Made by a program: the position numbers and the translations under genes. DNA of 43,306 bases from a virus (taxonomy: Duplodnaviria > Heunggongvirae > Uroviricota > Caudoviricetes), in IMG/VR virus record IMGVR_UViG_3300025133_000025, one strand, 5' to 3'. This document shows, piece after piece, positions 16,326 through 42,331 of the stretch (the stretch's first letter is position 1; every line of letters begins with the position of its first letter). The notes below the pieces were generated by a model. That model ran no database searches, was not told where the DNA came from, and saw only the letters and a list, made by a program, of their open reading frames with translations.

Positions 16326-16372
16326 CCTGCCTCCAATATGTACATTGTATCACGCAGTTAAGGGCGTGGAAC

Positions 16373-16780
16373 CTATTTTGCGGCTGCAGCCAGAGCGCTG
16401 GACGACTGGACCTTGCCACCGCGACCGACATTCCAGAGGAGACCCACATTCATGTCGTTACAGAGGTTGACCTCAGGCGTGTTGTCGCTGACACGATCTC
16501 CACCATTGGCGAAGTAGTCAGGCTTGAACCGCTTGATTGCGTCACAGGCAGTGTCATCAGAGTCGTCAAAGGCAACCACCTGTGAGACGCCGCGGATGGC
16601 CATCAGAATCTCCTTGCGCTCTTCAAACGGCATGAAAACGAAGCCCTTCTTGCGGAGCAGCCATGCGTCTGAATTGAGGGCGACAATCACCGGGCCCATC
16701 CGGTTCGCCTGCAGGATCATCCTCACATGCCCGATGTGAATTGGGTCGAAGCCTCCGGATACCATGATTCGCTCATTCAT
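16373..16780 (-). CDS. Cytidylyltransferase-fold nucleotidyltransferase (second RfaE-II/TagD-like paralog)
   Basis: MVSGGFDPIHIGHVRMIL is a HIGH-motif nucleotidyltransferase signature; 135 aa; GC-rich codon usage unlike the 15214 copy. Confidence 0.6.
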   Translation of the reverse strand: MNERIMVSGGFDPIHIGHVRMILQANRMGPVIVALNSDAWLLRKKGFVFMPFEERKEILMAIRGVSQVVAFDDSDDTACDAIKRFKPDYFANGGDRVSDNTPEVNLCNDMNVGLLWNVGRGGKVQSSSALAAAAK

Positions 16781-16791
16781 CTCAACACTCT

Positions 16792-17043
16792 CTATTCTGG
16801 CACAAAGCAGAAGCGCATGACGGGGACCAATCGATCACCCTTCTCGTACATGTCAAAGTTTGACGTGCTCTTGCAGAAGAGCTTCCCCCGGAGGCCGGCA
16901 AAAGCCCTCTCATCTCCGGGCCAGGCGTACTCTGACGTGAGATGGCGTGATACCTCACCATCAAGAAACTGCGGTGTCTCTACCTCAACCACCTCGATGC
17001 CAGGGTAATCCGCGAAGAACGCTCTAACTTCGTCAACCGTCAT
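16792..17043 (-). CDS. Hypothetical protein
   Basis: 83-aa ORF in the GC-rich island; 4-nt overlap with the upstream gene. Confidence 0.35.
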   Translation of the reverse strand: MTVDEVRAFFADYPGIEVVEVETPQFLDGEVSRHLTSEYAWPGDERAFAGLRGKLFCKSTSNFDMYEKGDRLVPVMRFCFVPE

Positions 17044-17315
17044 GGGCGGTTGGCGTCCATCTCCGCCAGCAGCTCATCAGCGTCGTAGCCACACATTGGG
17101 GCGGCATCACGAATCTGCTTCTCGGTGATCTTTCCATTGACGAATGGCAACACGACTAGGGTCTCGCCATCCTCGGCGAGTAGAAATACTCCCCCGCCTC
17201 GCTCCTTGAAGAGCGCCTGCATGTTGTTCCAGCCTGGGATAGGTTCTTCAGTTGCCAAGGGAAAAAGCCCTTCTGGTGTGCACTGGATGCTGTCCAGTGA
17301 ACTCGTAGATGCCAT
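17040..17315 (-). CDS. Hypothetical protein
   Basis: 91-aa ORF, co-directional and tightly packed. Confidence 0.35.
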   Translation of the reverse strand: MASTSSLDSIQCTPEGLFPLATEEPIPGWNNMQALFKERGGGVFLLAEDGETLVVLPFVNGKITEKQIRDAAPMCGYDADELLAEMDANRP

Positions 17316-18048
17316 AATCGCCCGTAGTGGTGGCTTTTCCGTCCTCTACAGCCCAATCGTAGGTGAATTCCCGGTCTCCGAACCGTGTATTCCACCAATC
17401 GATCTTGGACTGGATACGCTCTGGAGGCCGCATAAATGAGTAGTGGAAGTAGGAAATCGGCAGCTTGAGGTGCTGCGCGTTGCCCGAGAACCATCCAGCG
17501 TACTCCCAATCCATGTAGTTGTCGTTTACGAAGCGGCAACCAGGCGTCATCCTGAAGAAGCGAGGAAATTCATGCCACGTGTACGTGTCGAAGTCGTTCA
17601 CGAACGTCCTGGACTTGACGTGCACGCAGTCGACAGGAGTCACGTCCAGATTCCTTGTCAGGACCTTAGCAGCAATGGCCAGCTGGTCATCCTCCCACAC
17701 CTCATCGCCATCAACGATGAAGAGATAGTCCTCAACGCCATCACCGAAGTTGCAGAGGTTGTCACGAATGTAGTTCAGGCCCGCGTTTCGCTGGTGTGTG
17801 TCAGACTCCTGGTTGGTCTGCAGCATGGCCACCTTGTCGTGTGCCTCAGCAGCATCGACAATGCTCATGATGAGACCAACGGTGCCATCAGTGGAGCGAG
17901 CGGAGCGTCCAATGCGGATGAACTCCTGGTACGCACCTTCCACGATCGTGATGGAGGCGACGTGGGGCGACTCGATCATTGCTGGAAGGGAGGCAGGAAT
18001 GAACTCCGCCTCGTTGTACACTGTCATGAGAACGTGGATTCTAGCCAT
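17248..18048 (-). CDS. Glycosyltransferase family 2
   Basis: N-terminal VLMTVYNEAEFI (GT2 signature) and a DXD motif, FIVDGDEVW. Confidence 0.6.
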   Translation of the reverse strand: MARIHVLMTVYNEAEFIPASLPAMIESPHVASITIVEGAYQEFIRIGRSARSTDGTVGLIMSIVDAAEAHDKVAMLQTNQESDTHQRNAGLNYIRDNLCNFGDGVEDYLFIVDGDEVWEDDQLAIAAKVLTRNLDVTPVDCVHVKSRTFVNDFDTYTWHEFPRFFRMTPGCRFVNDNYMDWEYAGWFSGNAQHLKLPISYFHYSFMRPPERIQSKIDWWNTRFGDREFTYDWAVEDGKATTTGDYGIYEFTGQHPVHTRRAFSLGN

Positions 18049-18280
18049 TTTCTGCGGCCCTTCGCATTGCGTCCCACTCCTGCCCAGCAGTAAACATCAT
18101 TGTCGCCAGCAGAGTGTTTGACAAGCCAAACTCATCAAACTCTTCAGCGACACTCATGACAAATTTGGCCTGCATGTCTGGGGCGTCCATGACCATTGTC
18201 TGGCCGCTCTTGAATTCTGCGTAAACTGCCCTCATGTTGCGGCACAATATTTCGTAAGCGATTACTTCTGCATTATCCAT
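18041..18280 (-). CDS. Hypothetical protein
   Basis: 79-aa ORF overlapping the GT2 start by 8 nt. Confidence 0.35.
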   Translation of the reverse strand: MDNAEVIAYEILCRNMRAVYAEFKSGQTMVMDAPDMQAKFVMSVAEEFDEFGLSNTLLATMMFTAGQEWDAMRRAAENG

Positions 18281-19094
18281 CTTCTACCCAGAGAATGTCA
18301 TTGATCTGGCCAGTCTTGGGGAGCTCAATTGTCTTCAAGACCTCACCATTCATTGTAACCAAATGTAGGTGAGATGGAACCTCACCATGCCTCTCGCCTC
18401 GTGAAGCGCGGAAACTTTCACCAACCCAGAGGTTCCCATTGGGGAGCTGGGCAATGCCACGAATGAAGCCAGACAGCTTGACGAGTGGCTCATGGCCGCC
18501 GACGAGCCAGACCTCGCTGTCGTGAGACGAGCAGTAGGCGATGGTGCCATCGTGGAGGACTTCGATGTCGTGGGTGTGCGTTCCACCCTGGCTGACTGGA
18601 TGCATCTCGCTGATCTGGATGACGTCACCATGCGAGGCTTCGTCAATCCAGCTCCAGGGGATGAGCCCAATCTGACTTGTCTGCCCGCGGTTGTTGAGGC
18701 CGACCATGAGGCCATGCTCAGTCGCCGCCAGGGCGTTGATGTGGTTGATGTCAGCTCGGCGCTGGCCAATGTTGATCCGCCACTCTCTTTCCACTTCCGC
18801 CACTACGATGGAGTTGTCCTTCGTGCTCGTGAGGAACATCTGGTTGGCTTGCCTGAAGGCGATTTGGTGGCAGTCCAGCACATTGGGAATCCGGATGAAC
18901 ACCGCAGGGTCGTCGCTGGAGTAGATCCGCACGCCTGTGGCACCCTCATCACGACCTGTCGCAGCTACAACACCGGAGTCGTCTGTGATCAGACCAAACC
19001 AGTTGCTGCAATTGCTGTCATGGAAATAGAGCTCCGCCCGCGTTCCTTCATCATTTACCTGGAGGACGCCGGCGGTTGTTGCTACATAGAGCAA
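18273..19094 (-). CDS. Hypothetical protein, possibly beta-propeller fold
   Basis: 273 aa with repeated short beta-rich segments and H/D-rich motifs (THTHDIEVLHDGTIAY, NGNLWVGESF); no confident family assignment. Confidence 0.4.
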   Translation of the reverse strand: MLYVATTAGVLQVNDEGTRAELYFHDSNCSNWFGLITDDSGVVAATGRDEGATGVRIYSSDDPAVFIRIPNVLDCHQIAFRQANQMFLTSTKDNSIVVAEVEREWRINIGQRRADINHINALAATEHGLMVGLNNRGQTSQIGLIPWSWIDEASHGDVIQISEMHPVSQGGTHTHDIEVLHDGTIAYCSSHDSEVWLVGGHEPLVKLSGFIRGIAQLPNGNLWVGESFRASRGERHGEVPSHLHLVTMNGEVLKTIELPKTGQINDILWVEDG

Positions 19095-19097
19095 GCT

Positions 19098-19352
19098 CTA
19101 CTCCGCTTCTTTGTCTGCTGTCTTCGGCTTGCGCTTCCTGCTACTCGGCTTGCGCTTTGAAGGTAGGCGCTTCTCAGCAAGTGAAGGTAAGGCTGGTGCT
19201 GGTGCTAAATCTACAGGCTTAGCTTCAACAGGCTCAGGCTTAGCTTCAACAGGCTCAGGCTTGGCTTCAACAGGCTCAGGCGTTGGAAGAACCCAACCTG
19301 CTTGCCTCTCACGCTGTGAACGCTTAATTCGTGCTCGTGAACGTTTACTCAT
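19098..19352 (-). CDS. Small basic protein with (PEPVEAK)x3 repeat
   Basis: 84 aa, Lys/Arg-rich termini; the central triple PEPVEAK is encoded by a 21-bp tandem repeat; SD AGGAGA upstream. Confidence 0.45.
   Translation of the reverse strand: MSKRSRARIKRSQRERQAGWVLPTPEPVEAKPEPVEAKPEPVEAKPVDLAPAPALPSLAEKRLPSKRKPSSRKRKPKTADKEAE
19214..19276. repeat. 21-bp tandem repeat x3 (CAGGCTTAGCTTCAACAGGCT), coding
   Basis: Three consecutive near-identical 21-mers inside ORF 19098-19352; one substitution in copy 3. Confidence 0.8.
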
Positions 19353-31144: not shown

Positions 31145-31294
31145 GTCCTGAAACGGAGCAATTGCTGGCCATTTTAAAAGAAATTGCCAGTACGGGTGAT
31201 TTACAAGAAGTTTATGATATTATGCCTGACTGCGGAGCTCCGCTGGACGCGGCGGTATGGAATTGGATTGAGGCAGGTTGCCCAGACGCTGATT
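31141..31294 (+). CDS. Possible small ORF (GTG start)
   Basis: GTGA overlap with the preceding stop; 51 aa ending at the TAG at 31292-31294, convergent with the kinase operon end. Confidence 0.25.
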
Positions 31295-32600
31295 AGTGAA
31301 AGCGAAACAGGCCAAGGTCAGCTGCGACAATTGCTCTGTCTGTCGGGCGAATAAGAACATTACCTCTATGCAAATCAACGAAGCGCATTCCATGTTTTTC
31401 GTACATGTAGTGAAGTGCATTCACAAGACCTGAGAGTCCTGACTTCTCCGCAGTTTTTTTCTGCATTTTCAAGATTGCATCCTGCGTTTCTGGATCTTTA
31501 CTTCCTTTAAAGTCTCTAGCAAAATACGCGCCAGCCTTATCAGCAATGCCATGTGCCTTCCAAGTTTGATGCTTGTCGTAACCCTTTGGCACAATCCCAG
31601 TTCGGACGCCAATCTTAACAGAGGCGTCCAGCCACTTTTTAAATTTAGGTATACCCTGTTCATTTTGCGACAGATCAGCAAATTTCCGCATATGCTGCGC
31701 GAAAGTCTCGGCGACCTTGTCACTAAGATTTAATGATTTGTAAAGCGCCTTAAGGATGATTGCAACCTTATCATCATCTTTCATTGCAATCCATAATAGA
31801 TCTTCTTTTGCTTCGCCATGCGGATTCTTTGGCCCCTTTGGGGCTTTTGGAATTTCCCATGGCTTTTCAATGCGTTTCAAATATTCACCAGCCTTGACAG
31901 CACCTGGAAGTTCATCAAGCTTCTCCATTAGAACAATGGGAAATTCTTTTCCAGTTCGCCTGATAAGCCAGACGCCATAAATCTTCGGAAAGTGTTTAGC
32001 GACATCTGGTGGCAATTGTTCATACAGGTTAGCAATGGTCTTATACGGTTCGATGTTGTCAGCACGGTTCGATGTGGGAATTTTTAATGCCATGGCCTGG
32101 CCGTTGTCAGGCATAAATTCAAAGACTGTGCCAAATGCACCGATGCCAAGAAAGGCGCCGACATCACCGGGCGGAAGAATCTTTTGCATGTGCCCTGAAA
32201 AAGCTTCGCCCTTTTCTTGACTAAAATATGTAGATGACGCACGCTTCAAGAAATCGTTTGAAAGATTAGCAGGGTTTTTCTTTGACGGCGTTTCAAGATC
32301 CGGATCGACGTAGATGGCGACTGCAGTCGGTTCCTGACCATGCTTTGTATCCAGGCTTCCACCCCTCCGCCGCCTCCTTCCGCCTACAGGCACTGTAGCT
32401 GGAAGTTCCTCTGCATTGATTGGACCGTGTGATGTAGGCGGCGTCTCAGGCCAGTCTTCCTTTTCTGCAACAAGGCCTGAATATTCCTTAACAACAGTTA
32501 CTGATATACTGTCAACATCATCATCTTCCTGATCATAGATATTTTCAATTACGCGATTGTAATTTTCAAGTGCGAGGAGCTGTGTTATTGTTGGAAACAT
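31293..32600 (-). CDS. Protein-kinase-like fold protein K1 (truncated ePK-like; ends 6 aa after the DLG)
   Basis: Gly-loop LGIGAFGTVFEF, AMALKI (VAIK-like Lys), catalytic loop VDLHRGNVLI, Mg-binding VAADLGLFRFH at the extreme C-terminus. Confidence 0.6.
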   Translation of the reverse strand: MFPTITQLLALENYNRVIENIYDQEDDDVDSISVTVVKEYSGLVAEKEDWPETPPTSHGPINAEELPATVPVGGRRRRRGGSLDTKHGQEPTAVAIYVDPDLETPSKKNPANLSNDFLKRASSTYFSQEKGEAFSGHMQKILPPGDVGAFLGIGAFGTVFEFMPDNGQAMALKIPTSNRADNIEPYKTIANLYEQLPPDVAKHFPKIYGVWLIRRTGKEFPIVLMEKLDELPGAVKAGEYLKRIEKPWEIPKAPKGPKNPHGEAKEDLLWIAMKDDDKVAIILKALYKSLNLSDKVAETFAQHMRKFADLSQNEQGIPKFKKWLDASVKIGVRTGIVPKGYDKHQTWKAHGIADKAGAYFARDFKGSKDPETQDAILKMQKKTAEKSGLSGLVNALHYMYEKHGMRFVDLHRGNVLIRPTDRAIVAADLGLFRFH

Positions 32601-33349
32601 TAGCGGAAAAGTCCAATATCTGAGACAACAAGCGATTTGTCAGTCGGGCGCACCATTATATTGCCGTGGTGCAGATCGTCAGGTTCGATATTCTGAAAAT
32701 CGATTAAATCTTCCATGGCATGATAGAACGTCGCCACACCTATGAACTCTGCAGTTGCAGCGTCAACATTTGACGTAAGGCTATAATCTGGTAGTTTGCC
32801 GGTTATAATCGCTTTACGCAGTAATTTCTCCATTTTGATCGGGAGAGGTTCAAGATATTCCATAAGGGTAATGACAAGACCTGAGTCAGGAATAAGCCAC
32901 GCTGCAGAAGGTCGACCTGATTCAGGAATAAGCCACGCAGCATAGATTTTCGGGAGGTGGCGGGCAGTTCCAGGCTTCGACGTGCCCTTTGCACGGGCCA
33001 CAAGTTTGTAAGCATCCGGCTCATCCTCACTGATTTTCAACGCCATCCTCGGCCCATGATCGGGAACGAAGTCCCAAACAACACCATAGGACCCCTGTCC
33101 AAGTACATCCTTGATTGTTCCTGCAGGCAAAAGTTGCTCCAGAGCAGACCTTACGTCAGCAGTGAAAATGCTATCGCGCGGAATACCATCAACATGCCCG
33201 GGTTCTGCAAGGGTCGGATCAACATAGATTTCTTTATATGCAAGATTTTGCACATGACCTGTTCGGGCACCTTGTTGTTCAAGCAATTGAACCATTGTAG
33301 GAAGCAGATCAATCATATTTGTAGAAGTTACCGATGTCAGCAACAACAA
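32600..33349 (-). CDS. Protein-kinase-like fold protein K2 (paralog; ends right after the DIG)
   Basis: LGQGSYGVVWDF, RMALKI, HLPKIYAAW, ITLMEYLEPLP, DDLHHGNIMVRPTD, VVSDIGLFR-stop. Confidence 0.6.
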   Translation of the reverse strand: MLLLTSVTSTNMIDLLPTMVQLLEQQGARTGHVQNLAYKEIYVDPTLAEPGHVDGIPRDSIFTADVRSALEQLLPAGTIKDVLGQGSYGVVWDFVPDHGPRMALKISEDEPDAYKLVARAKGTSKPGTARHLPKIYAAWLIPESGRPSAAWLIPDSGLVITLMEYLEPLPIKMEKLLRKAIITGKLPDYSLTSNVDAATAEFIGVATFYHAMEDLIDFQNIEPDDLHHGNIMVRPTDKSLVVSDIGLFR

Positions 33350-34283
33350 GGTGCCCGTCAGATTTACGAACCATTACATTATCATCATGCAAGTCCTGCC
33401 AGCTTATGCCATATCTTTCATGAATCTCTCTCAGCGCTTCGTAAAATGGCAGGATACCGAGAGATTCAAGTTTATCGTCACCTTCATCACCCAGGTTCTT
33501 CCAATGCGCACGAGATGTTGGAGTTATAGTGAGCATCGCCCGGTTATAATCAAACACATCAAGTGAGTTGTGCATTCTTGGCCCGGGCCTAATTCCAACC
33601 TCCTTGGCGGAATCAATAATCGCATCACGCAATCGAGCAGCCTGAGCATCATCCTCAAAATCATGGGGAGCGTTGAGGTTGTATGTTCGGCGAAGTCCTG
33701 CCACAGCGTGAGGCAATCGCTCTACCAATTCCGGCCGTGTTTCTGTATCAAGCAGGCCGAGGGTGATTCGCATAAGCCGGCCAACACGTTTATCACTTTG
33801 CACAAATTCTTCCCATGACATCCTATTTTCAGGATCCCCGCGGACCATGGCTGTCTTAATATTCTTTGGAAGCGGCGACAGGATTTCCATAAGCGTTATA
33901 ACAGTTTCTGTATCGACAGACCAAATGCCATAGATTTTCGGGAGGTGGCGAATCAGTTCCCGCGGCGCTGTGTCGTAAATCTTTTGAATTTCTTCGTAGG
34001 CCTCCGGCTCATCCTCACTGATTTTCAATGCCATCATAGGTCCATCGTCAGGCTTGAAACGGTAGACAGTACCAAATGAACCAGCGCCGAGGCGGGTCTC
34101 TACAACCCCGGGTGGCAGCACGTCAGCAAGGGGCGCCGGGGCGAGCCGATGTCCCCGAAGAAGACGAAGATCAACAGATCCTGGACCCTTGTTAATTTCC
34201 AGTTCTGGTGACACAAAGATTTCCTTTGTTGAAGCTGCCTTTGCAGCTTCAACAACCAGGGTTTTCATTGTGGGAAATGTCAT
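33309..34283 (-). CDS. Protein-kinase-like fold protein K3 (paralog)
   Basis: LGAGSFGTVYRF (canonical GxGxFGxV), MMALKI, HLPKIYGIW, ITLMEILSPLP, QDLHDDNVMV, VVADIGNFYKYD-stop. Confidence 0.6.
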   Translation of the reverse strand: MTFPTMKTLVVEAAKAASTKEIFVSPELEINKGPGSVDLRLLRGHRLAPAPLADVLPPGVVETRLGAGSFGTVYRFKPDDGPMMALKISEDEPEAYEEIQKIYDTAPRELIRHLPKIYGIWSVDTETVITLMEILSPLPKNIKTAMVRGDPENRMSWEEFVQSDKRVGRLMRITLGLLDTETRPELVERLPHAVAGLRRTYNLNAPHDFEDDAQAARLRDAIIDSAKEVGIRPGPRMHNSLDVFDYNRAMLTITPTSRAHWKNLGDEGDDKLESLGILPFYEALREIHERYGISWQDLHDDNVMVRKSDGHLVVADIGNFYKYD

Positions 34284-35326
34284 ACAAATTCACCGATGTC
34301 AGACACAACAACGTCGTTTGTTCCAGCGCGCATCATGATGTTATCTGTTTTAAGGTCATGCCAATCAACATTATGCTTACTTGATATATATTCGAGCGTC
34401 GCGTAAAATGTACGAAGACCTGTTTTGGAGAGATAGTCAAAGTGCCTTTCCATTTCCCTTGAATCCGTTGGTTTCGATGTAGGAAGCATAACAGCTGTGG
34501 CAGCAGCAGAAGTCCAGGTGTGGGACATGAACTGCGTTAAGCGTTTAATCTCACTCGCATGCTCGGGATGTAGTTGAACAAGGAGATTGGCGATGAGTCC
34601 GGCGAAGGCCTCGGCTTGGGCCTGTGTTGGAGGTGTTTCTGAAAATCTCCAGCGTTTTCGAATTTGCGGAATGAGCTCATCTGCAACGACAGCATAGAGG
34701 TTTGGAATGATGCTGTGTAGTCGAAAAATTCCCTCGTAAACGTATGCTGCAATATTTGCATCATCAGCAATCCATTTTGACCAGTCAGGTTCATGACCAT
34801 GATATTCTTCATATTCAAAGAATCCGTCAAGGGCGTTCTGAATGGAGATGGGGAGTTTGCTGAGATGTTCCATCAAAATTACTGTTAGGGTTGTATTCTG
34901 CAGGGCCAATTCCCAGACGCCGAAAATCTTTGGGAGGTGCCTGCTGTGCAGTTCAGGGAGTTGCCCACGAATGGCATATACGTCGTCGTATGGTTTGGTA
35001 TCGTCGTCACCGATTTTCACAACCATAAGCGGTCCGAAATCCGGTTTAAATTCAAAAACAGAGCTGTGCGCTCCAGCACCTACATATTCACCCACATCAC
35101 CTGGTGGTAAAACGTTTTGTAAGGTCTGGAACACTATTTTATCAACCCTGGGAACACCCAGGTGGTCAGTGGCCCGATCGGCTGTGCGAAGTGCGTCCTG
35201 GATGCTAACAGTGGATTTCGTGCCAGCTGGACGGATCTCGTCGCGGATAATTTCCTTGACCGCAATTTTGTTGTTGTCACCCCTGGGCGACAGTTCTGTC
35301 AACAGGTTATGCATTGTGGGGAGCAT
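34280..35326 (-). CDS. Protein-kinase-like fold protein K4 (paralog; start uncertain)
   Basis: VGAGAHSSVFEF, LMVVKI, HLPKIFGVW, VILMEHLSKLP, HDLKTDNIMM (compare HRDLKPEN), VVVSDIGEFV-stop. The start was set at the Met (MLPTMHN) at 35326; the open frame continues to 35806, but that part translates tandem DNA repeats. Confidence 0.5.
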   Translation of the reverse strand: MLPTMHNLLTELSPRGDNNKIAVKEIIRDEIRPAGTKSTVSIQDALRTADRATDHLGVPRVDKIVFQTLQNVLPPGDVGEYVGAGAHSSVFEFKPDFGPLMVVKIGDDDTKPYDDVYAIRGQLPELHSRHLPKIFGVWELALQNTTLTVILMEHLSKLPISIQNALDGFFEYEEYHGHEPDWSKWIADDANIAAYVYEGIFRLHSIIPNLYAVVADELIPQIRKRWRFSETPPTQAQAEAFAGLIANLLVQLHPEHASEIKRLTQFMSHTWTSAAATAVMLPTSKPTDSREMERHFDYLSKTGLRTFYATLEYISSKHNVDWHDLKTDNIMMRAGTNDVVVSDIGEFV

Positions 35327-35402
35327 AACATATATAGTGTCCACGCTGCCATCTATGCCATGGTGTTTCGTGGCAACGATTTTTTCCAGAAATTTTTGTG
35401 CT

Positions 35403-35486
35403 GGCAGGGCTGTTCTGGTGGTGCAATCCTGGCAGAGCTGTTCTGGTGGTGCAATCCTGGCAGAGCTGTTCTGGTGGTGCAAATTC
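35403..35486. repeat. 28-bp tandem direct repeat x3 (GGCAGAGCTGTTCTGGTGGTGCAATCCT)
   Basis: Three head-to-tail copies; copy 1 has 1 mismatch and copy 3 diverges in its last 5 nt. Confidence 0.85.
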
Positions 35487-35698
35487 TCGAGAAGTTGTGC
35501 AGAGGCGTTGCGCGGCTTCGAGGCCTTTCTAAATCTCCAACAACCTATCTGAGGCCTTTCCGCAGGCCCTCGCCGGCCCGAGCTGGGTTGCGCCGACGGG
35601 CGGCTAGAAGGTCCCAACCTGGTATGGAAAGGCCCTGAGGGTGGTGTGGGGCAGGCCTTTCCATGGCGCCAGCACCAAGGCATGCCGTGCCGGCGAGG

Positions 35699-35806
35699 GC
35701 CTATCTTTCCGCAGGGCCTCCGACCACAAGATAGGTCTATCTTTCCGCAGGGCCTCCGACCACAAGATAGGCCTATCTTTCCGCAGGGCCTCCGACCACC
35801 AACCAC
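35699..35806. repeat. 36-bp tandem direct repeat x3 carrying the CTTTCCGCAG promoter upstream box
   Basis: GCCTATCTTTCCGCAGGGCCTCCGACCACAAGATAG x3. A fourth partial unit continues into promoter P1. Further degenerate copies of GGCCTTTCC(G/A) lie at 35554 and 35656. Confidence 0.85.
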
Positions 35807-35814
35807 GGTCTAGC

Positions 35815-35843
35815 TTTCCGCAGCACCACCGCCTTGGTATATT
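35815..35843 (+). promoter_or_regulatory. Cassette promoter P1: TTTCCG-N17-TATATT with TGG upstream (extended -10)
   Basis: gcTTTCCGcagcaccaccgcctTGGTATATT; 17-nt spacer; about 65 nt upstream of the ATG at 35910. Confidence 0.6.
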
Positions 35844-35909
35844 AATAACATAAGGGGCACGGACCAACCGGCAATAAAGCTGGAAGGCCGGCCCCCTGGA
35901 GATACTATC

Positions 35910-36299
35910 ATGGCCAAGTGGAACCCCAGCTCGAAGGTGAACCAGAGCCACCTCCTGACCATCCTGCGCCGCGGCGGCAACGAGTACCTCGACATCGTCG
36001 AGCGCCTCTCCCACCGGGCCCAGAAGCCCAACGGTCCTGACGGCCTGAACGTGACCATCATCCGGGATGCGATCGAGCAGGGCTACCTCGCTACGGATGC
36101 TGAGGCCATCCTGTTCCCCTCCGAGGAGAACGTGAACAAGGCCAAGGTGGCCGCGGCCGAGGATGCCAAGGCGACGATGATCGACAACCTCCTGGAGCTC
36201 GGGCAGCAGGGAGCGGTCAACGCGATGATCCAGGCGGGGACGGTCAGCGCGGAGCTGGTCGCCGGCATCGAGGCCAGCCGGGCCGCCGAAGAGGCCTAG
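35910..36299 (+). CDS. MAK-family small protein, paralog 1 (unknown function)
   Basis: 129 aa; MAKWNPSSKVNQSH N-terminus shared with 3 other cassette ORFs; SD GGAGA 9 nt upstream; about 65% GC. Confidence 0.65.
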   Translation: MAKWNPSSKVNQSHLLTILRRGGNEYLDIVERLSHRAQKPNGPDGLNVTIIRDAIEQGYLATDAEAILFPSEENVNKAKVAAAEDAKATMIDNLLELGQQGAVNAMIQAGTVSAELVAGIEASRAAEEA

Positions 36300-36307
36300 G
36301 CCTGACA

Positions 36308-36336
36308 GGGCCGGCGGGGGCAACACCCGCCGGCCC
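36308..36336 (+). terminator. GC-rich hairpin (11-bp stem) after cassette 1
   Basis: GGGCCGGCGGG-gcaacac-CCCGCCGGCCC; no U-tract, so this may be an intrinsic-terminator variant or a processing/recombination site. Confidence 0.4.
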
Positions 36337-36393
36337 ACCCGTCTGGAGCTGGTCTCACCGGTCCTCAACCTCTCGGCTCCTCCACCCGGAGGG

Positions 36394-36413
36394 CCGAAGG
36401 TCCGGACCTTCGG
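36394..36413. repeat. Perfect 20-bp palindrome CCGAAGGTCCGGACCTTCGG
   Basis: Exact inverted repeat with no loop, in the inter-cassette spacer. Confidence 0.8.
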
Positions 36414-36469
36414 AGCCTAGGCTTTCCGCAGCCCTGCTGCCTAGGCCTTACAGCGTGGGCTGAGCTGGC

Positions 36470-36498
36470 TTTCCGCGGCACCACTGAAATGGTACAAT
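36470..36498 (+). promoter_or_regulatory. Cassette promoter P2: TTTCCG-N17-TACAAT with TGG upstream
   Basis: ggcTTTCCGcggcaccactgaaaTGGTACAAT; a near-duplicate of P3 including the downstream AAGGACGG(A/T)GGCCA. Confidence 0.6.
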
Positions 36499-36556
36499 AT
36501 AATTACAAGGACGGAGGCCATCATACAGATGGGCTGCCGATCCGACTGGAGCCACC

Positions 36557-36967
36557 ATGGCCAAGAAGAACCGCTGGAACCCCTCCTCCAAGGTCAACTG
36601 CAACCACGTCACGGGCATGCTCGCCAAGGGCACGGCGGAGTACAAGGACTGGGTCGGCCGGGCCTTCTCCGTCCCCGCCGACGCCGACGCCGAGTACTTC
36701 GAGGACATCATCCGCGAGGGCCACGAGGACGGCTACCTCACCGATGAGAATGTGGACACCCTGCTGGGTACGGGCCCCTCGACGAAGGACGTCCAGGCCG
36801 CCGCCGCCGGCAACGCCCAGGCCCAGATGATCTCCGGGCTGGCCAACGCCGGGCAGCACAGCGCGGTGGCCTCCATGATCGGCACGACCGTCTCGCAGGA
36901 CCAGGTCGACCAGGTCTACGAGGCGCTCAACCTGGACTTCGCCGCCTTGACCGCGCCGGAGGCCTAG
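36557..36967 (+). CDS. MAK-family small protein, paralog 2
   Basis: 136 aa; MAKKNRWNPSSKVNCNHVTGMLAKG...; the overlapping +/- ORFs at 36489-37024 are rejected as GC artefacts. Confidence 0.65.
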   Translation: MAKKNRWNPSSKVNCNHVTGMLAKGTAEYKDWVGRAFSVPADADAEYFEDIIREGHEDGYLTDENVDTLLGTGPSTKDVQAAAAGNAQAQMISGLANAGQHSAVASMIGTTVSQDQVDQVYEALNLDFAALTAPEA

Positions 36968-37049
36968 CCGGCCCAACCCTTCGCCCCGAGCACCATCGAA
37001 GCCATCGGCTACTAGCACCACCACAGTCGGCCTAGCAGGGAGGAGACTC

Positions 37050-37088
37050 TCTGTTAGGCCGGCCTAACAGCGACTGAGCAGCTCAGTC
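37050..37088. repeat. Two adjacent perfect palindromes (CTGTTAGGCCGGCCTAACAG; CGACTGAGC-a-GCTCAGTCG)
   Basis: A 20-bp exact palindrome followed directly by a 19-bp one, in the spacer after cassette 2. Confidence 0.8.
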
Positions 37089-37097
37089 GATTTAAGG

Positions 37098-37126
37098 TTT
37101 CCGCCGCACCACCGACTTGGTATAAT
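37098..37126 (+). promoter_or_regulatory. Cassette promoter P3: TTTCCG-N17-TATAAT with TGG upstream
   Basis: ggTTTCCGccgcaccaccgactTGGTATAAT. Confidence 0.6.
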
Positions 37127-37187
37127 TTAGGTATAAGGACGGTGGCCACCAAAACGGTGAATCACTGCTCCCGTTGGAGAATGAGAC

Positions 37188-37622
37188 ATGGCCAAGAAGA
37201 ACCGCTGGAATCCTGCCTCGCGTGTCAACTGCAACCACCTCACGGGGATGCTCCTGAAGGGCGACGACGCGTACCGGGACTTCGTCTCCCGCGCCTTCTC
37301 CGCCGCCCCCGAGGAGTTCGAGGCGATCGTCCAGGAGGGCCTCGACTGGGGGTACTTCACCTCGGACAACCGGGACGCCTTGCTCGGCACCGGCCCCTCC
37401 ACGGCCGCGATCTCGGAAGCCGCGGCGGGCAACGCCCAGGCGACGATGATCTCCGGCCTCGCCAACGCCGGCCAGCACAGCGCGGTGGCCTCCCTCGTCG
37501 CCGCCGGGACCTGCACCCAGGACCAGGTCGACCAGGTGTACGGCGCCTTGGAGCTGGACTACGCGGCCCTGATCGCCCCGCCGGCCCCCAAGGCGCCCAA
37601 GGCCAAGAAGGCCGCCAAGTAG
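37188..37622 (+). CDS. MAK-family small protein, paralog 3
   Basis: 144 aa; MAKKNRWNPASRVNCNHLTGMLLKG...; SD GGAGA upstream; Lys-rich C-terminal tail PKAPKAKKAAK. Confidence 0.65.
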   Translation: MAKKNRWNPASRVNCNHLTGMLLKGDDAYRDFVSRAFSAAPEEFEAIVQEGLDWGYFTSDNRDALLGTGPSTAAISEAAAGNAQATMISGLANAGQHSAVASLVAAGTCTQDQVDQVYGALELDYAALIAPPAPKAPKAKKAAK

Positions 37623-37642
37623 CCTAGCCGGCTGCCACTGAC

Positions 37643-37667
37643 GGACCGGCCCCTCCTGGGCCGGTCC
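37643..37667 (+). terminator. GC-rich hairpin (10-bp stem) after cassette 3
   Basis: GGACCGGCCC-ctcct-GGGCCGGTCC; followed by GGCCTTACAGCG and GGCCTAACAGCG half-site copies. Confidence 0.4.
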
Positions 37668-37767
37668 ACCGGCTGGGCCTTACAGCGTGAGCTGCGCGAA
37701 CGCTGATAGTCCTCTCTGAGCCGGCCTAACAGCGCGGGCTGAGCCCGCCGTCACAGTGCCACGAGGC

Positions 37768-37796
37768 TTTCCGCAGCAGGCCAACCATGGTATAAT
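37768..37796 (+). promoter_or_regulatory. Cassette promoter P4: TTTCCG-N17-TATAAT with TGG upstream
   Basis: ggcTTTCCGcagcaggccaaccaTGGTATAAT. Confidence 0.6.
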
Positions 37797-37829
37797 TTAG
37801 GTACCGGAATTGACCGGCTGGAGAACCCC

Positions 37830-38531
37830 ATGATCGATGCACTTACAATCTTCAACGCTTCCACGGATCGGCGGACCTACTGGCGCCTGAATCGTGAGGC
37901 GGGCGCTGCTACCCTGGATGAGGCGATCGCCTTGACCTGGGAGGACTTCTACCCGTACGAGCACATGCCCCAGGATGACGCCATCAACATGGATGGCATG
38001 GACGACATCTTCGAGGTCGGTGGACCGGAGAACATGGAGATCGTGACCCACGGCGGCGGGTGGTTCACCGTGGAGTACAAGAACGGTTGCTCCCAGGAGG
38101 AGGACACCCGCGACCACCCGGAGGAGTGGAACCAGTGGGAACAGGTCACCCGCCTCGTCAGCCAGGACTACCTCACCTTGGAGCGTGGGTTCACCGTCCT
38201 GGACGATACCCCGGCCGGCCACGGCGACGAGTTCGGTCGGATCTACTGGGTGATCGGCGACACCACGGAGCCGGGGACGGTCGATCGGAAGCCCAAGGTG
38301 CTCACCGGTGATGAGGTCATCGAGCGGTCGATCAAGGAGGGCATCCGGTCCGACCTCGAGTTGGAACAGCAGGTCCTGCCGCCGGTCGATCACCGGTGGA
38401 ACGACATGATGATGCAGAGCGCCGCCCTGGACATCCTGGCTGGTGTGACCATGGCCAGCATCCGCTACCACAGCTACGACGCCTGGGAGGATGTGGAGAT
38501 GCTGACCCGCCACTTCCACGGCAAGATCTAG
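37830..38531 (+). CDS. Acidic hypothetical protein (233 aa) in the cassette array
   Basis: SD GGAGAA upstream; D/E/W-rich; no family recognised; the antisense ORF 37797-38555 is rejected. Confidence 0.6.
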   Translation: MIDALTIFNASTDRRTYWRLNREAGAATLDEAIALTWEDFYPYEHMPQDDAINMDGMDDIFEVGGPENMEIVTHGGGWFTVEYKNGCSQEEDTRDHPEEWNQWEQVTRLVSQDYLTLERGFTVLDDTPAGHGDEFGRIYWVIGDTTEPGTVDRKPKVLTGDEVIERSIKEGIRSDLELEQQVLPPVDHRWNDMMMQSAALDILAGVTMASIRYHSYDAWEDVEMLTRHFHGKI

Positions 38532-38576
38532 AAGCCTCACCAGCTGGCTCAGCACCTGCGGCCTGGGGTAGCCTGG

Positions 38577-38598
38577 GCCGTAAGGCCGGCCTTACGGC
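38577..38598. repeat. Perfect 22-bp palindrome GCCGTAAGGCCGGCCTTACGGC
   Basis: Exact inverted repeat centred on GGCCGGCC, in the spacer after cassette 4. Confidence 0.8.
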
Positions 38599-38653
38599 GA
38601 AGAACAGCTCAGCCCCTCCCTTTCCTCCATACTTGGAAGCACAGACCGGCATG

Positions 38654-38682
38654 TTTCCGATGCATGACCGCCATGGTATAAT
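38654..38682 (+). promoter_or_regulatory. Cassette promoter P5: TTTCCG-N17-TATAAT with TGG upstream
   Basis: gTTTCCGatgcatgaccgccaTGGTATAATatattAGGAACCCC; a near-duplicate of P8. Confidence 0.6.
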
Positions 38683-38763
38683 ATATTAGGAACCCCGGCC
38701 GGTTGAATCAATGCCATGGCAGATGGCTGTCATGGCAACTGGCCACCTACTACAGGAAGTGAC

Positions 38764-39591
38764 ATGAACTGGAATAGCATCGCAAATGACCTTGACATCT
38801 GGAACAGTGGTGGGAAGATGAAGGCGACGATCTCGCTCTTCTTGAACAGCCCCGGCATCAGCCACGCCCTGTACATCATCTTCCTCGCTGTCTACGGTGG
38901 CTGGAACATGTTGTCGACCGCCGCGCTCCGCCAGGAGCCTGGCCCGTCGGCGTCCCAGAAGTACGAGTTGACCGACTACGTCAACAAGGACACCATCCTC
39001 AGCATCGTCAACGACGCCCGTCAGAAGGCCTGGAGCGATCTGGAGATCAGTGGTATCATGCCCGAGTGGAAGGTGGGCGGCATGGCGGAGCCGGCCTGCG
39101 CGATCCGGCCGGGCGAGGACAATCCAACCCTTGTCTTCAACAAGATCCAGTTCATCAAGCAGGTGCGTGAGGCCCACGGCTTGGGACTGAAGGAAGCGAA
39201 GAAGGCTGTGGAAGACATGTTGGTGCAGGCTTCCGGGCTCGTCGCCTTCCGTGGAGTCCGTGGGAAGCTCATTGAGCACATGCCGACGACTTTCCTCCAC
39301 ATCACGAACGTCCACATCAATCTCGACGAGCTCGTCTCCCTGCCCATCAACTATCGGCCGCATGCCTACGAAGGAGAGCGCAGGTCGCGTGACAACTCGA
39401 CCAGCGATGACACCTTCTACACGGTGGGGTGGTACTGGGAGAACGTGCTCTCCTTCGAGAACAAGCGACTCTTCCGGAGCTTGGACCACTTCCGAAGCAC
39501 GTCCATCGCAGTGAAGCGGCGCGCCCAGTACCTCAACCACGAGGGTGCCTGGGTTTACGTCGATGATGTCGCCACCGAAATCCTTGCCTGA
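38764..39591 (+). CDS. Membrane-anchored protein with a ribosomal bL12 (L7/L12) C-terminal-domain-like segment
   Basis: The start was chosen at MNWNS (SD AGGAAG 5 nt upstream); the longer frame starts at 38716. TM helix [45 protein letters not shown] aligns to E. coli bL12 [26 protein letters not shown] (GLGLKEAK identical). Confidence 0.55.
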   Translation: [275 protein letters not shown]

Positions 39592-39613
39592 GTGAAGGGG
39601 TTCCTCGGCGAGG

Positions 39614-39653
39614 GGCCCTGGGCCTGCTGTCTTCGGATGGCAGGCCCAGGGCC
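39614..39653 (+). terminator. GC-rich hairpin (14-bp stem) after cassette 5
   Basis: GGCCCTGGGCCTGC-tgtcttcggatg-GCAGGCCCAGGGCC. Confidence 0.45.
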
Positions 39654-39693
39654 TATTAGCGCTTCGCGCCGAAGGCCCCAAGACGCAGCTGGC

Positions 39694-39722
39694 TTTCCGC
39701 CGATCTACCGTGTTTGTATAAT
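39694..39722 (+). promoter_or_regulatory. Cassette promoter P6: TTTCCG-N17-TATAAT (TG adjacent)
   Basis: ggcTTTCCGccgatctaccgtgtttgTATAAT; downstream ATAAGGGGCGC resembles the P1 leader. Confidence 0.55.
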
Positions 39723-39743
39723 AATACTATAAGGGGCGCAGGT

Positions 39744-39759
39744 GCTGAAATATTTCAGC
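39744..39759. promoter_or_regulatory. Perfect 16-bp palindrome GCTGAAATATTTCAGC in the P6 leader (operator-like or leader hairpin)
   Basis: Exact inverted repeat about 15-30 nt downstream of the predicted TSS and 25 nt upstream of the SD; a second CTGAAA...TTTCAG palindrome lies at 40265. Confidence 0.45.
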
Positions 39760-39794
39760 AGTTGTTATAAACAGCCCCGACATGGAGAGAAGAC

Positions 39795-40190
39795 ATGGCT
39801 AAGAACCGCTGGAACCCTTCGAGCAAGGTCAACTGCAATCACATCACCGGGATGATCGCCAAGGGTGACGCCGAGTACAAGGACTGGGTCGCCCGGATCT
39901 TCGGCTCGAACAACGACACCTTCGCCGACCTGGTGACCGAGGGCAAGACCGCGGGCTACCTCACCGCCGAGAACTCCAACTTCCTGCTGGGCACGTCGGC
40001 CAGCACCCCGGCTGTGAAGGCGGCCGCCGCGGCCGACGCCAAGCGCAGCATGGTCATCGGCCTGCTGGGTGCGGGACAGGACACGGCGGTCGATTCGCTG
40101 ATCCAGTCCGGGCAGGTGGACCAGGAGTTCGTCGACAGCATCCGCGCGGAAATCGTGGATGCTGAGGAAGCTCGCCGCTCGTCGAAGTAG
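39795..40190 (+). CDS. MAK-family small protein, paralog 4
   Basis: 131 aa; MAKNRWNPSSKVNCNHITGMIAKGDAEYKDWVARIFG...; SD GGAGAG upstream. Confidence 0.65.
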   Translation: MAKNRWNPSSKVNCNHITGMIAKGDAEYKDWVARIFGSNNDTFADLVTEGKTAGYLTAENSNFLLGTSASTPAVKAAAAADAKRSMVIGLLGAGQDTAVDSLIQSGQVDQEFVDSIRAEIVDAEEARRSSK

Positions 40191-40198
40191 AGAAACGC

Positions 40199-40226
40199 CA
40201 GGCCGGGGGCTTCGGTCCCCGGCCGT
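40199..40226 (+). terminator. Hairpin GGCCGGGGGC-TTCG-GTCCCCGGCC (UUCG-type loop) after cassette 6
   Basis: 8-10-bp GC stem immediately after the stop; a CCGTACGG palindrome and a GCTGCTTTT run follow. Confidence 0.5.
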
Positions 40227-41238
40227 ACGGCGCTGCTTTTCAAAGCTCTTCGGCGCAGCCAGCGCTGAAAGACCGGTCTTTCAGAGAAAGCAGCTGAGCC
40301 CGCAGTCCTGGCCACAGCTCCCTGCCTGGCAACATTCCGACGCTGTCCAGCTTTCGGCAGCCTACATCACCTTCCGATGCGGCTCAGCACTGCAATGTGC
40401 TGAAAAGACTGCAATTTTGCTGCCCACTGCCCTGCCGATGCTGAATGTGAGATTCGAGGCATCTGCTCTTCGCTGCAGCAATCATATGAATACTATGCCC
40501 ATCCCGGTTTTTCACTATACCCGCCGGGATAGAAAGCAGGCTGGCCCATGCGCTGGCCTCGGCAGCCCATCGATGCAGCGGAAGCAGACGGTGTGGCGCT
40601 ATGATATCATTCCCAGCAAAACGCCACCAGACCTGCCGTGCCGCGACGCTCTGCGCTCTCCCTTCGCAACTCTGCTCCCGGCTTCTGGCGCTGCGCTCTG
40701 TAGTTGCGGGCACCACTCCACCCATTCTTGTTAGGCTTGAAAACCTTATCAGGCCATCTCGTCAGCTCCCATTTTGTGAGTTTGCATATGAATCAGTAGC
40801 GCCAGCTGTTCTTCCCTATTTGCAATGTGAAGAGCTGCTCAGTGTTGTCCGAGCTGTAGACATTTTGTTGTGTGATGTTAAAGGCTTAGGGCTCTGCTGC
40901 TGTCCCTGCAGCGTTGCTCCACCCCGCAGCGCCAAAGCAGGGAAACAGCATATGCTGATATCATAAAGCACACAGAGCTTACAGCACCAGCAGAGAAACG
41001 AGGTTTAGGAGTTGGGAGTTGTGGTATAGAACCTATCCTATTGGAGTCTATTGGTTTATCTGTTAGTTAGTTGTTGGTTCTGATACCATCAAAGGCACGT
41101 TGTATTGTAGCAAGAGTATATGAATGAGGCTGCCCAGCATTTCCGGCTGACCAAATTGGTAGGCTGCAGGGCAAGCCGCGTGAGTTCGGACTGTTGGATT
41201 GCAGTCCTGATGATATCTTCTGGCAACATCCACAGTAA
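40227..41238. other. About 1-kb apparently non-coding region with palindromes (candidate structured RNA or decayed cassettes)
   Basis: Only low-complexity R/S/P/C-rich ORFs on either strand (40159-40734, 40601-40966, 40384-40725). Contains the CTGAAAGACCGGTCTTTCAG palindrome and several short hairpins. GC is intermediate. Confidence 0.4.
40265..40284. repeat. Perfect 20-bp palindrome CTGAAAGACCGGTCTTTCAG
   Basis: Exact inverted repeat; shares CTGAAA/TTTCAG arms with the 39744 palindrome. Confidence 0.8.
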
Positions 41239-41266
41239 TTTCCGTGTATGAATTCACTGTTATAAA
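41239..41266 (+). promoter_or_regulatory. Cassette promoter P7: TTTCCG-N16-TATAAA with TGT upstream
   Basis: aaTTTCCGtgtatgaattcacTGTTATAAAat; AT-rich context. Confidence 0.5.
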
Positions 41267-41304
41267 ATAGAAATAGGTGAGAATGTTCCACCGAGGAGAT
41301 AAGC

Positions 41305-41604
41305 ATGAGCGATAACAGGGACTTCCCAACGATTCGTCGCCTGATTGGTGTCATTGAGGACGCATCTTCTGCTGAGCAGATTATCCTCAACAACAGGGTT
41401 TTGGGCGATCACCTCGGCGGAATTATCCGCATTCGGAATGAGGGCGTGATCAGGAATCTCTACTTTGGCAACGCATCCTCCGAAGGCGCCCTCGATGCTT
41501 TGATTGCGCTTGTTGAAGCTATTCGATCCGAAGCTGCCCACGAATTGGCTGGGCAGGGTGTGGATGTCAGGCCGGTTTCAGATGCAACGAAGATTTCCGA
41601 CTAA
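41305..41604 (+). CDS. Hypothetical protein (99 aa)
   Basis: SD GAGGAG 7 nt upstream; the stop overlaps the -35 box of P8. Confidence 0.55.
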   Translation: MSDNRDFPTIRRLIGVIEDASSAEQIILNNRVLGDHLGGIIRIRNEGVIRNLYFGNASSEGALDALIALVEAIRSEAAHELAGQGVDVRPVSDATKISD

Positions 41605-41622
41605 CAACCGCCATGGTATAAT
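41594..41622 (+). promoter_or_regulatory. Cassette promoter P8: TTTCCG-N17-TATAAT with TGG upstream
   Basis: aTTTCCGactaacaaccgccaTGGTATAATatacctAGGAACCCCC; a duplicate of the P5 module. Confidence 0.6.
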
Positions 41623-41657
41623 ATACCTAGGAACCCCCAACCCAAGCGAGTACTAAC

Positions 41658-42032
41658 ATGGCCGCCCGCACACTTTCCGACCGCTTCTCAGAGTTCATCC
41701 ACTTCGAGTACGGTGATGGCAACGGACGACTGAACCTGCTCGAAGAGGCCATCAAGCGAGTAGATGAGCCCCATTACGCGCAGAACAACTCACACTACTA
41801 TGTGCGACCCGACGGATCATGGGGAGCTCGCCCGCCGCTCTCGATGGGGCCGCGCGACTCGTACGAGTCGCGCGGCGGGATGCCGGCTTTGACATACGAT
41901 CCGAAGTATGTCTTCTGGCCCGAGGACGGATTCGTGTACGTGCGGTCGCGTGAGGCTGCTATCGAGCTCGTGACGATCATGGTCCTCCACAACGCCCGCA
42001 TCGCGGTGCGGGTGCTGGAAATCATGTCCTGA
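41658..42032 (+). CDS. Hypothetical protein (124 aa), GC-rich
   Basis: ORF directly downstream of P8; about 58% GC; weak SD. Confidence 0.5.
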   Translation: MAARTLSDRFSEFIHFEYGDGNGRLNLLEEAIKRVDEPHYAQNNSHYYVRPDGSWGARPPLSMGPRDSYESRGGMPALTYDPKYVFWPEDGFVYVRSREAAIELVTIMVLHNARIAVRVLEIMS

Positions 42033-42331
42033 TGAACTATAATCCACTGAACGAAAACCCGGAGTACTGGCGCATGGATAGTGTGAGACTTCGAAGAGGC
42101 GATTTGGTAAGCGTTACTTACAACGGACGCAATGGATCAACTGTAGGGTTTTTTAAGGCAGAAATCCTTAGCGTATTTAAGAATACTTCTCTGGTTCGCT
42201 TTGAAGATAAGATTGCTCCGGACTATCCAGACGACACTTGGAACCCAGACCTTGGCTACCACTTTGTCGATTCAGACCGAGGCTATGTGGACGAAGTTAC
42301 GAACGATTCACTCATCCGCGTTGGGCTATAA
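42032..42331 (+). CDS. Hypothetical protein (99 aa)
   Basis: TGATG stop/start overlap with the preceding gene. Confidence 0.5.
   Translation: MNYNPLNENPEYWRMDSVRLRRGDLVSVTYNGRNGSTVGFFKAEILSVFKNTSLVRFEDKIAPDYPDDTWNPDLGYHFVDSDRGYVDEVTNDSLIRVGL

Follow-up and report, generated by a model that had tools for sequence, protein, structure and literature searches.

We observed that a 43,306-nucleotide stretch of an uncultured marine tailed phage (IMG/VR record IMGVR_UViG_3300025133_000025; hereafter the window) carries four small paralogous genes, paralogs 1 to 4, each organised as a separate expression cassette and written in a GC-rich codon dialect opposite to that of the rest of the genome. Their products share the N-terminal motif MAK..WNPxSxVNxxH and constitute a protein family that is new both at the sequence level and at the level of detectable fold. 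By analogy with the host-takeover module of Bacillus phage SPO1, we tentatively read the paralogs as abundant early proteins that bind host components in host takeover or anti-defence, a reading that we hold to be possible, though somewhat short of probable.

A first-pass annotation of the window had proposed four related open reading frames (ORFs) of 129-144 amino acids. All four were found in place (Table 1), with lengths of 129, 136, 144 and 131 amino acids, and a full-length alignment of them has 28 invariant columns, which confirms that they are paralogs. Identity is 68% between paralogs 2 and 3, 54% between paralogs 2 and 4, 46% between paralogs 3 and 4, and 33-38% between any of these and paralog 1. 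The N-terminus had been described as invariant. Its conservation is indeed very strong, but paralog 1 lacks the K-N-R and has Q/S in place of C/N, and paralog 3 has A/R in place of S/K. The family had likewise been described as having four members. Four is the correct count for the window, in which tblastn and a hidden Markov model scan detected no extra or decayed copies, but the phage carries at least six, two more lying beyond the window's end on contig L015, which continues its DNA. A 59-amino-acid ORF in the same continuation resembles only the C-terminal segment of the family.

The four ORFs are genuine coding genes on the plus strand. G+C content at the first, second and third codon positions (GC1/GC2/GC3) is ~0.63/0.45/0.90-0.98 in the plus frame, and a GGAG Shine-Dalgarno sequence stands 7-9 nt before the ATG in all four. 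Within the conserved motif, serine, proline and asparagine codons differ synonymously, and the nonsynonymous rate (dN) lies well below the synonymous rate (dS). Because of the GC richness, long ORFs are open in several frames of the region, and the public annotations of contigs L005 and L006 have antisense ORFs over paralogs 2 and 3 and the neighbouring orf291. The ORFs might thus have arisen by chance in non-coding DNA that is rich in GC, or the true genes might run antisense. We regard this explanation as refuted, with practically no probability left to it: the GC3 periodicity matches the plus frame, Shine-Dalgarno sequences and promoters precede the ORFs, homologs with 25-57% identity occur in other phages, dN is below dS in the conserved motif, and an AlphaFold2 model of paralog 2 reached a predicted local distance difference test (pLDDT) score of 88. 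Since the antisense public calls leave the true proteins unannotated, the family is under-represented in protein databases.

Next, we examined the cassettes. Each copy had been credited with its own promoter, and this was borne out. The motif TTTCCG-N17-TA(T/C)A(A/T)T occurs at seven exact sites between 35,815 and 41,622, all on the plus strand, and TGn precedes the -10 element, giving an extended -10 with the consensus TGnTATAAT. When one mismatch was allowed, we counted eight matches against 0.66 expected, and none of 100 dinucleotide-preserving shuffles reached eight. The motif scan found no such promoter near the structural genes of the window, which lie on the other strand. Two unrelated genes within the array, orf233 and orf291, have promoters of the same type, and the cassette series runs on past the paralog family, the seventh promoter standing upstream of orf124. 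The same promoter type is found ahead of related cassettes on contigs L001, L003, L012 and L015, with an ATTCCG variant on L013 and L014.

Transcripts are predicted to start ~7 nt after the -10 element, within a conserved AUAAGG(G/A). Three of the four family 5' untranslated regions (UTRs) contain a stem-loop with z-scores of -2.4 to -5.9; that of paralog 3 is weaker (-1.4). The GGAG ribosome-binding site would be left exposed. The start regions are A-rich and weakly folded, at -6 to -9 kcal/mol versus an internal mean of -14 to -16, and the 3' ends carry perfect GC hairpins of 10-18 bp without a U-tract. An Rfam search of 35-43.3 kb returned only sub-threshold chance matches. At the head of the array, the TTTCCGCAG box of three tandem 36-bp repeats is identical to the -35 element of the cassette promoters, and these repeats may be binding sites for a regulator.

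Table 1. Genes, signals and repeats of the cassette array and its surroundings. Positions refer to the window unless a contig is named; aa, amino acids; z, folding z-score.
Feature	Position	Strand	Remarks
Paralog 1	35910..36299	+	129 aa, clade A (MAKWNPSSKVN..LLTILRRG); orthologs P0007, P0010, P0011 in other phages
Paralog 2	36557..36967	+	136 aa, clade B2; protein used for the AlphaFold2 model
Paralog 3	37188..37622	+	144 aa, clade B2; Lys/Ala/Pro-rich tail PAPKAPKAKKAAK
Paralog 4	39795..40190	+	131 aa, clade B1; ortholog P0005 in second phage, 57% identity
Family member P0013	L015 7100-7498		DNA continuing from window end
Family member, 141 aa	L015 13963-14388		DNA continuing from window end
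Promoter, paralog 1	35815..35843	+	TTTCCG-N17-TATATT, TGG in front of -10
Promoter, paralog 2	36470..36498	+	
Promoter, paralog 3	37098..37126	+	
Promoter, orf233	37768..37796	+	
Promoter, orf291	38654..38682	+	
Promoter, paralog 4	39694..39722	+	
Seventh promoter, same type	41594..41622	+	upstream of orf124 (41658-42032, GC3 0.77)
5'-UTR stem-loop, paralog 1	35854..35895	+	z = -3.97; ends directly before the GGAG ribosome-binding site
5'-UTR stem-loop, paralog 4	39733..39778	+	z = -5.94
3' GC hairpin, paralog 1	36308..36336	+	11-bp stem, no U-tract
3' hairpin, paralog 2	37026..37063	+	17-bp stem, z = -3.71
3' hairpin, paralog 3	37643..37667	+	10-bp inner stem, z = -4.18
3' hairpin, orf291	39614..39653	+	18-bp stem, z = -4.64
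3' hairpin, paralog 4	40201..40224	+	10-bp stem
Three tandem 36-bp repeats	35698..35805	+	7-bp inverted repeat (CTATCTT...AAGATAG) around TTTCCGCAG box, no -10; divergent intergenic region between kinase-like genes and paralog 1
Three tandem 28-bp repeats	35401-35484		same divergent intergenic region
orf233	37830..38531	+	orphan interleaved in array, GC3 0.88, unrelated to paralogs
orf291	38716..39591	+	orphan, GC3 0.82
Four tandem kinase-like paralogs	31293-35806	-	ORFs of 435, 249, 324 and 508 aa
Public antisense gene calls	L005 10612-11112, 11183-11569, 12777-13631; L006 10612-10989	-	over paralogs 2 and 3 and orf291

The most unusual feature of this genome is the presence of two opposite codon dialects, the GC-rich one being limited to the promoter-equipped cassettes. 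For the four paralogs, GC3 at synonymous sites (GC3s) is 0.944 and the effective number of codons (Nc) is 30.8, compared to 35.4 expected from GC3 alone; eight large genes representing the rest of the phage gave a GC3s of 0.325 and an Nc of 50. The codons AAA, CAA, TAT, TTT, ATT, ACA, ACT, GTA and GTT are absent from the four paralogs, and codons ending in C are preferred (GCC 61 vs GCG 26; GGC 26 vs GGG 9). The other island genes have a GC3 of 0.77-0.88 and a GC3s of 0.82. As a whole, the compositional island spans 35000-42100 of the window, with a GC content of 0.56-0.67 versus ~0.40-0.45 elsewhere. Relatives in other phages show the same bias, with a GC3 of 0.77-0.89 against 0.41-0.55 for their neighbours on L013/L014 and 0.68 against 0.36-0.54 on L021; the value is 0.93 on L012 and 0.90-0.92 on L001/L003.

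Such an island could be a passenger module that arrived recently from another phage or a host of high GC content, with codons and cassettes that reflect its origin. The jump in GC content, from ~0.42-0.48 to 0.60-0.67, is sharp, GC content is high (0.61) along the whole of the related contigs L001 and L003, and small genes have been gained and lost between strains in the related early region (L015 versus L016). However, a search of 185,579 species genomes gave no cellular homologs, and the GC3 enrichment over neighbouring genes is seen in phages whose proteins have diverged to 25-50% identity, with no amelioration. In addition, Nc lies below the GC3 expectation with C-ending codons preferred, and the same promoter type drives lower-GC genes further downstream in the phage (L015). 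Because the GC3 bias persists among proteins that share only 25-50% identity, these data argue for selection rather than recent import, which we consider unlikely.

A second, milder GC-rich island was observed at ~16-19 kb of the window (region 13900-19100, minus strand), with a GC content of 0.54-0.56 and a GC3 of 0.60-0.70 in the four ORFs at 15711-19094. Its genes are of the sugar-nucleotide/lipopolysaccharide type: cytidylyltransferase-like, PfkB-family kinase, GT2-like glycosyltransferase and cupin. The GT2-like gene is possibly host-derived and might have given a clue to the host; it has no close relative in the 185,579 species genomes.

The family is phage-only and rare, with a total of ~20-25 distinct sequences among ~15 billion proteins. 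A profile search of 5.8 billion clustered proteins returned the four paralogs and four proteins from one other metagenome, an exhaustive HMMER scan of 1.84 billion cluster representatives yielded ~17 true members, and a third search added two. We found no relatives in INPHARED (tblastn), nor by back-translated pattern scans in IMG/VR or the 185,579 species genomes, and the same kind of scan in the JGI metagenomes returned only the window's own phage. Arrays of these genes occur in at least three phage lineages, with three to five copies on L001 and L013/L014. Pseudogenisation of most copies in relatives had been named as an outcome that would count against a role in anti-defence or host takeover; it was not seen, and all copies are intact.

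A distance tree resolved the members into six clades. Clade A comprises paralog 1, P0007, P0010, P0011 and the second copy on L001; clade B1, paralog 4 and P0005; clade B2, paralogs 2 and 3, P0006 and P0008, and P0009; clade C, P0013; clade D, the second L015 copy and P0033; and clade E, P0014, P0016, P0017 and P0022. Clades A, B1 and B2 are each represented both in the phage of the window and in another phage (L001/L003), so the duplications that separate them are older than the split of the two phages and their products have been retained since. The pairs formed by paralogs 2 and 3 and by P0006 and P0008 are later, lineage-specific duplications.

Selection acts very differently along the protein. 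Within the first 24 aligned codons, most pairs have a dN/dS of ~0.1-0.3 (for paralogs 2 and 4, dN is 0.08 and dS 0.69), with the most divergent pair, paralogs 1 and 2, as an exception. Over the remainder it is ~0.5-0.9, and higher for paralogs 1 and 2; codon bias compresses dS and makes the absolute values unreliable, so that only the contrast within a gene is safe to read. By that contrast, the N-terminal peptide is strongly constrained and the helical body much freer.

A near-invariant N-terminal peptide on diverging paralogs is also the pattern of the T4 internal proteins IPI, IPII and IPIII, which are small, multi-copy and fast-evolving and share an N-terminal capsid-targeting sequence; IPI is an anti-restriction effector. 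By this likeness the MAK-family proteins could be packaged in the virion as internal or ejected proteins, with the N-terminus serving as a capsid-targeting or processing signal. Several observations make this very unlikely. The two groups share no homology, our alignments show no conserved (L/I)xE cleavage motif after the N-terminal peptide, and no PHROG structural family was matched. Furthermore, the genes lie among small orphans rather than morphogenesis genes, and their housekeeping-type extended -10 promoter is absent from the structural-gene region of the window; the kind of promoter and the place of the genes in the genome both favour early over late expression.

To characterize the proteins themselves, we combined structure prediction with family searches. 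Members are small (~105-160 amino acids). The AlphaFold2 model of paralog 2, built from an alignment of eight sequences, is all-helical, with no recognisable enzyme fold. The first-pass annotation had recognised no known family, and database searches agreed in that no well-characterised family was matched. In Pfam, the best E-values were 0.06-0.08 for the four paralogs and 0.00067 (CLIP) for one of 20 relatives; these matches were to single unrelated families, none shown with a score at the gathering threshold. PHROGs v4 gave no match, NCBIfam gave only noise, and nothing fell below an E-value of 0.1 in a PDB sequence search with profiles from 8 and 20 sequences.

Three candidate relationships were set aside at this stage. 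Matches to anti-sigma factors and sigma-70 region 1.1 were sub-threshold only (Sigma70_r1_1, E 0.08; FlgM, E 0.02 in one member; PDB 8her_B, E 0.2-0.4). Some members resemble ribosomal protein bL34 by eye over ~7 residues of the N-terminus (KRT(F/W)QPS), but PF00468 was not matched at E <= 1. The profile of the family also picks up multi-repeat secreted proteins of the DUF2680/YckD type (PF10925) through a C-terminal …LIxxGTVTxEQVxxV, with 4-8 matches per protein. None of 20 members matches PF10925 at E <= 1, and each has a single GT(V/I)TxEQ hairpin and no repeat. The shared part is only a helix-Gly-Thr-x-Thr-x-Glu-Gln hairpin of ~30-40 residues, which also scores against SHOCT, XkdX and SPP1 gp23.1, whereas the N-terminal motif and the first four helices of the family have no counterpart. 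The likeness to DUF2680 is a shared local motif, not membership.

The proteins had been described as having an acidic central region. Overall they are only mildly acidic, with a net charge of -2 to -10. The first 25 residues carry a positive charge (+1 to +5) in every member, and clade E is basic overall (pI, isoelectric point, 8-9). The Lys-rich tail noted on paralog 3 is real, is rich in Lys/Ala/Pro (PAPKAPKAKKAAK), and has counterparts on P0009 and on the partial copy at L003 11-172. T7 Ocr and ArdA are small, early, helical and acidic DNA-mimic anti-restriction proteins encoded near the start of the early region; a DNA-mimic role was rejected for the MAK family on account of its modest net charge, basic N-terminus, basic clade E and lack of any structural match.

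The same charge features bear on the idea that the proteins act on the phage's own nucleic acid, for instance as regulators or chaperones that bind DNA or RNA, either at the repeated TTTCCGCAG boxes or by coating the DNA as it enters the cell. All members have the basic N-terminal segment, clade E is basic throughout, and the Lys/Ala/Pro tails in clade B2 are of a kind that non-specific DNA binders carry, for example histone H1-like tails. Every promoter has an invariant TTTCCG(C) box, and three extra copies lie in the 36-bp repeats that lack a -10; this implies that some factor binds the box. There are also helical matches to ParB/Spo0J, CtsR and TrpR, all weak and non-significant. Against this idea, the net charge of most members is negative, the searches detected neither a helix-turn-helix nor any other DNA-binding family in them, and at least six paralogs seem excessive for one regulator. 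On balance we think it improbable.

We return to early host-takeover or anti-defence binders. SPO1 genes 37-60 are small early genes in short transcription units, with promoters and ribosome-binding sites typical of high expression, and the products of this host-takeover module bind and disable host machinery (PMC6873191). The window is similar in that one promoter, one strong ribosome-binding site and one hairpin accompany each small gene, among orphan genes. What we found matches this architecture: seven TGnTA(T/C)A(A/T)T promoters, GGAG sites, genes of 124-291 amino acids and, for most of them, a hairpin. There is no similarity in sequence or fold; the likeness would be one of functional class. 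To our knowledge, the SPO1 module is not a paralog family and has no reported codon dialect opposite to the rest of its genome.

In the mechanism that we propose, each paralog would be an autonomous cassette for rapid, high-level expression by host transcription and translation at or near the start of infection. The proteins would act on host components as stoichiometric binders, not as enzymes. The conserved and mostly unstructured N-terminal peptide (A-K-x-x-W-N-P-x-S-x-V-N-x-x-H) might provide a common contact, and specificity would differ between the paralog lineages through their faster-evolving helical bodies. Early, abundant expression by host machinery is suggested by the cassette design, the housekeeping-type extended -10 element and the absence of this promoter from structural genes, and further by the host-type translation signals, the optimisation towards G/C-ending codons, the phage-only distribution and the neighbourhood of orphan and kinase-like genes. 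Stoichiometric binding is suggested by a small helical fold without a catalytic signature, combined with a conserved N-terminus and a diverging body. With its four kinase-like paralogs and a gene containing a segment like the ribosomal L7/L12 C-terminal domain, the neighbourhood likewise points to manipulation of the host. The anti-defence or host-takeover role that the first-pass annotation had suggested is, by analogy, partly supported: it fits the cassettes, the phage-only distribution, the long-kept clades and the contrast between N-terminus and body.

Several points weigh against this interpretation. We infer, rather than observe, the early timing, the abundance and binding function of the proteins, and their host and target. 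TTTCCG matches the TTGACA -35 consensus at only three of six positions and so could equally well be bound by an activator of phage or host origin; the promoters would then belong to a middle rather than an immediate-early class. Two dispersed members in the same phage, outside the window, have a GC3 of only 0.49 and 0.66. Conservation of Lys and Asn in the N-terminus may in part reflect selection for an A-rich, unstructured translation start, and the caution on absolute dN/dS values given above applies here as well.

A bolder version would combine a new fold with a new class of immediate-early effector. The N-terminal peptide would dock on a conserved host machine (ribosome, RNA polymerase or protease), and the bodies would redirect or block it in a paralog-specific manner. 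An otherwise AT-rich phage would keep this gene set in the GC-rich codon dialect of its host (GC3 ~0.95 vs 0.33), allowing full-speed translation before the cell is remodelled, a strategy that would be undescribed. We consider this version rather doubtful.

Should the paralogs prove to be early effectors, the host-manipulating proteins of phages would gain an uncharacterised helical fold. The two-part design of the family, a conserved N-terminal handle on a diverging body, lends itself to direct tests. In the codon inversion we would have a clear case from nature in which the timing of expression shapes codon usage, and it might help to predict host GC content for uncultured phages. What is new here is the protein family; the kind of module that it appears to form, a set of early small genes in a large lytic phage, is known. 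Antisense gene calls cause such families to be under-represented in databases.

The source phage is myovirus-like, with a genome of ~175-179 kb that encodes a baseplate wedge protein, glycosyltransferases, a PD-(D/E)XK-type exonuclease, RNase T and a sigma factor like those of the extracytoplasmic function (ECF) group. By its baseplate wedge protein, the closest isolate is Microcystis phage Mel-JY01 (32% identity). On a contig of 175,726 bp the cluster lies close to the end, at a distance of ~2-6 kb, and since the window's tail overlaps the start of that same contig, the assembly is circular or permuted. Structural, sugar-metabolism and kinase-like genes occupy the minus strand; small orphan genes occupy the plus strand from ~35.8 kb, and this rightward region goes on for more than 17 kb.

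The first orphan in the array, orf233, belongs to a second orphan family, of which only the N-terminal ~45 amino acids (MIDxLTIFNASxxRRTYWRLNREAG...) are common to different phages; they recur at L001 2841-3377 and L003 380-886, always beside MAK-family genes, and a word-indexed search of 5.8 billion proteins found no other relatives. In orf291, a 26-amino-acid segment resembles ribosomal protein L7/L12 in its C-terminal domain (Pfam, E 1.5e-7; TIGR00855, E 8e-6), and the protein also matches three PHROGs of unknown function; its single-sequence AlphaFold2 model was unusable (pLDDT 33). Strong RNA structure encloses the annotated start of orf291, so that translation probably begins at 38764 instead (275 amino acids, as on L007).

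Directly abutting the array and divergently transcribed from it, the four kinase-like paralogs have weak Pkinase, ABC1 and PHROG 'kinase' matches at the extreme C-terminus, in the catalytic-loop region. The copies share DNA segments that are 73% identical. The 5' part of the last ORF overlaps the intergenic repeats, and on L005 it is called at 348 amino acids. A sigma factor gene lies among the structural genes at 12361-13116 on the minus strand (Sigma70_r2, E 7e-8; ECF superfamily, E 1e-5). It presumably serves late transcription, and the promoter type expected for it is unlike the cassette promoters.

Paralog 4 is followed by an ORF-poor stretch of 1.4 kb (40200-41590), in which orf191 shows flat GC1/2/3 values. 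ORF-poor stretches of 0.75-1.4 kb follow the last family gene in three phages, the others being L013 1768-2540 and L021 3748-4495. The three show no mutual sequence similarity; that of the window is not conserved elsewhere, has no Rfam match and is not unusual in its folding (z = -1.45). Finally, comparison of the collinear strains L015 and L016 revealed that small genes have been gained and lost, L016 having extra genes of 56 and 81 amino acids at 2252-2664. Such small-gene gain and loss is typical of a hyperplastic early region.

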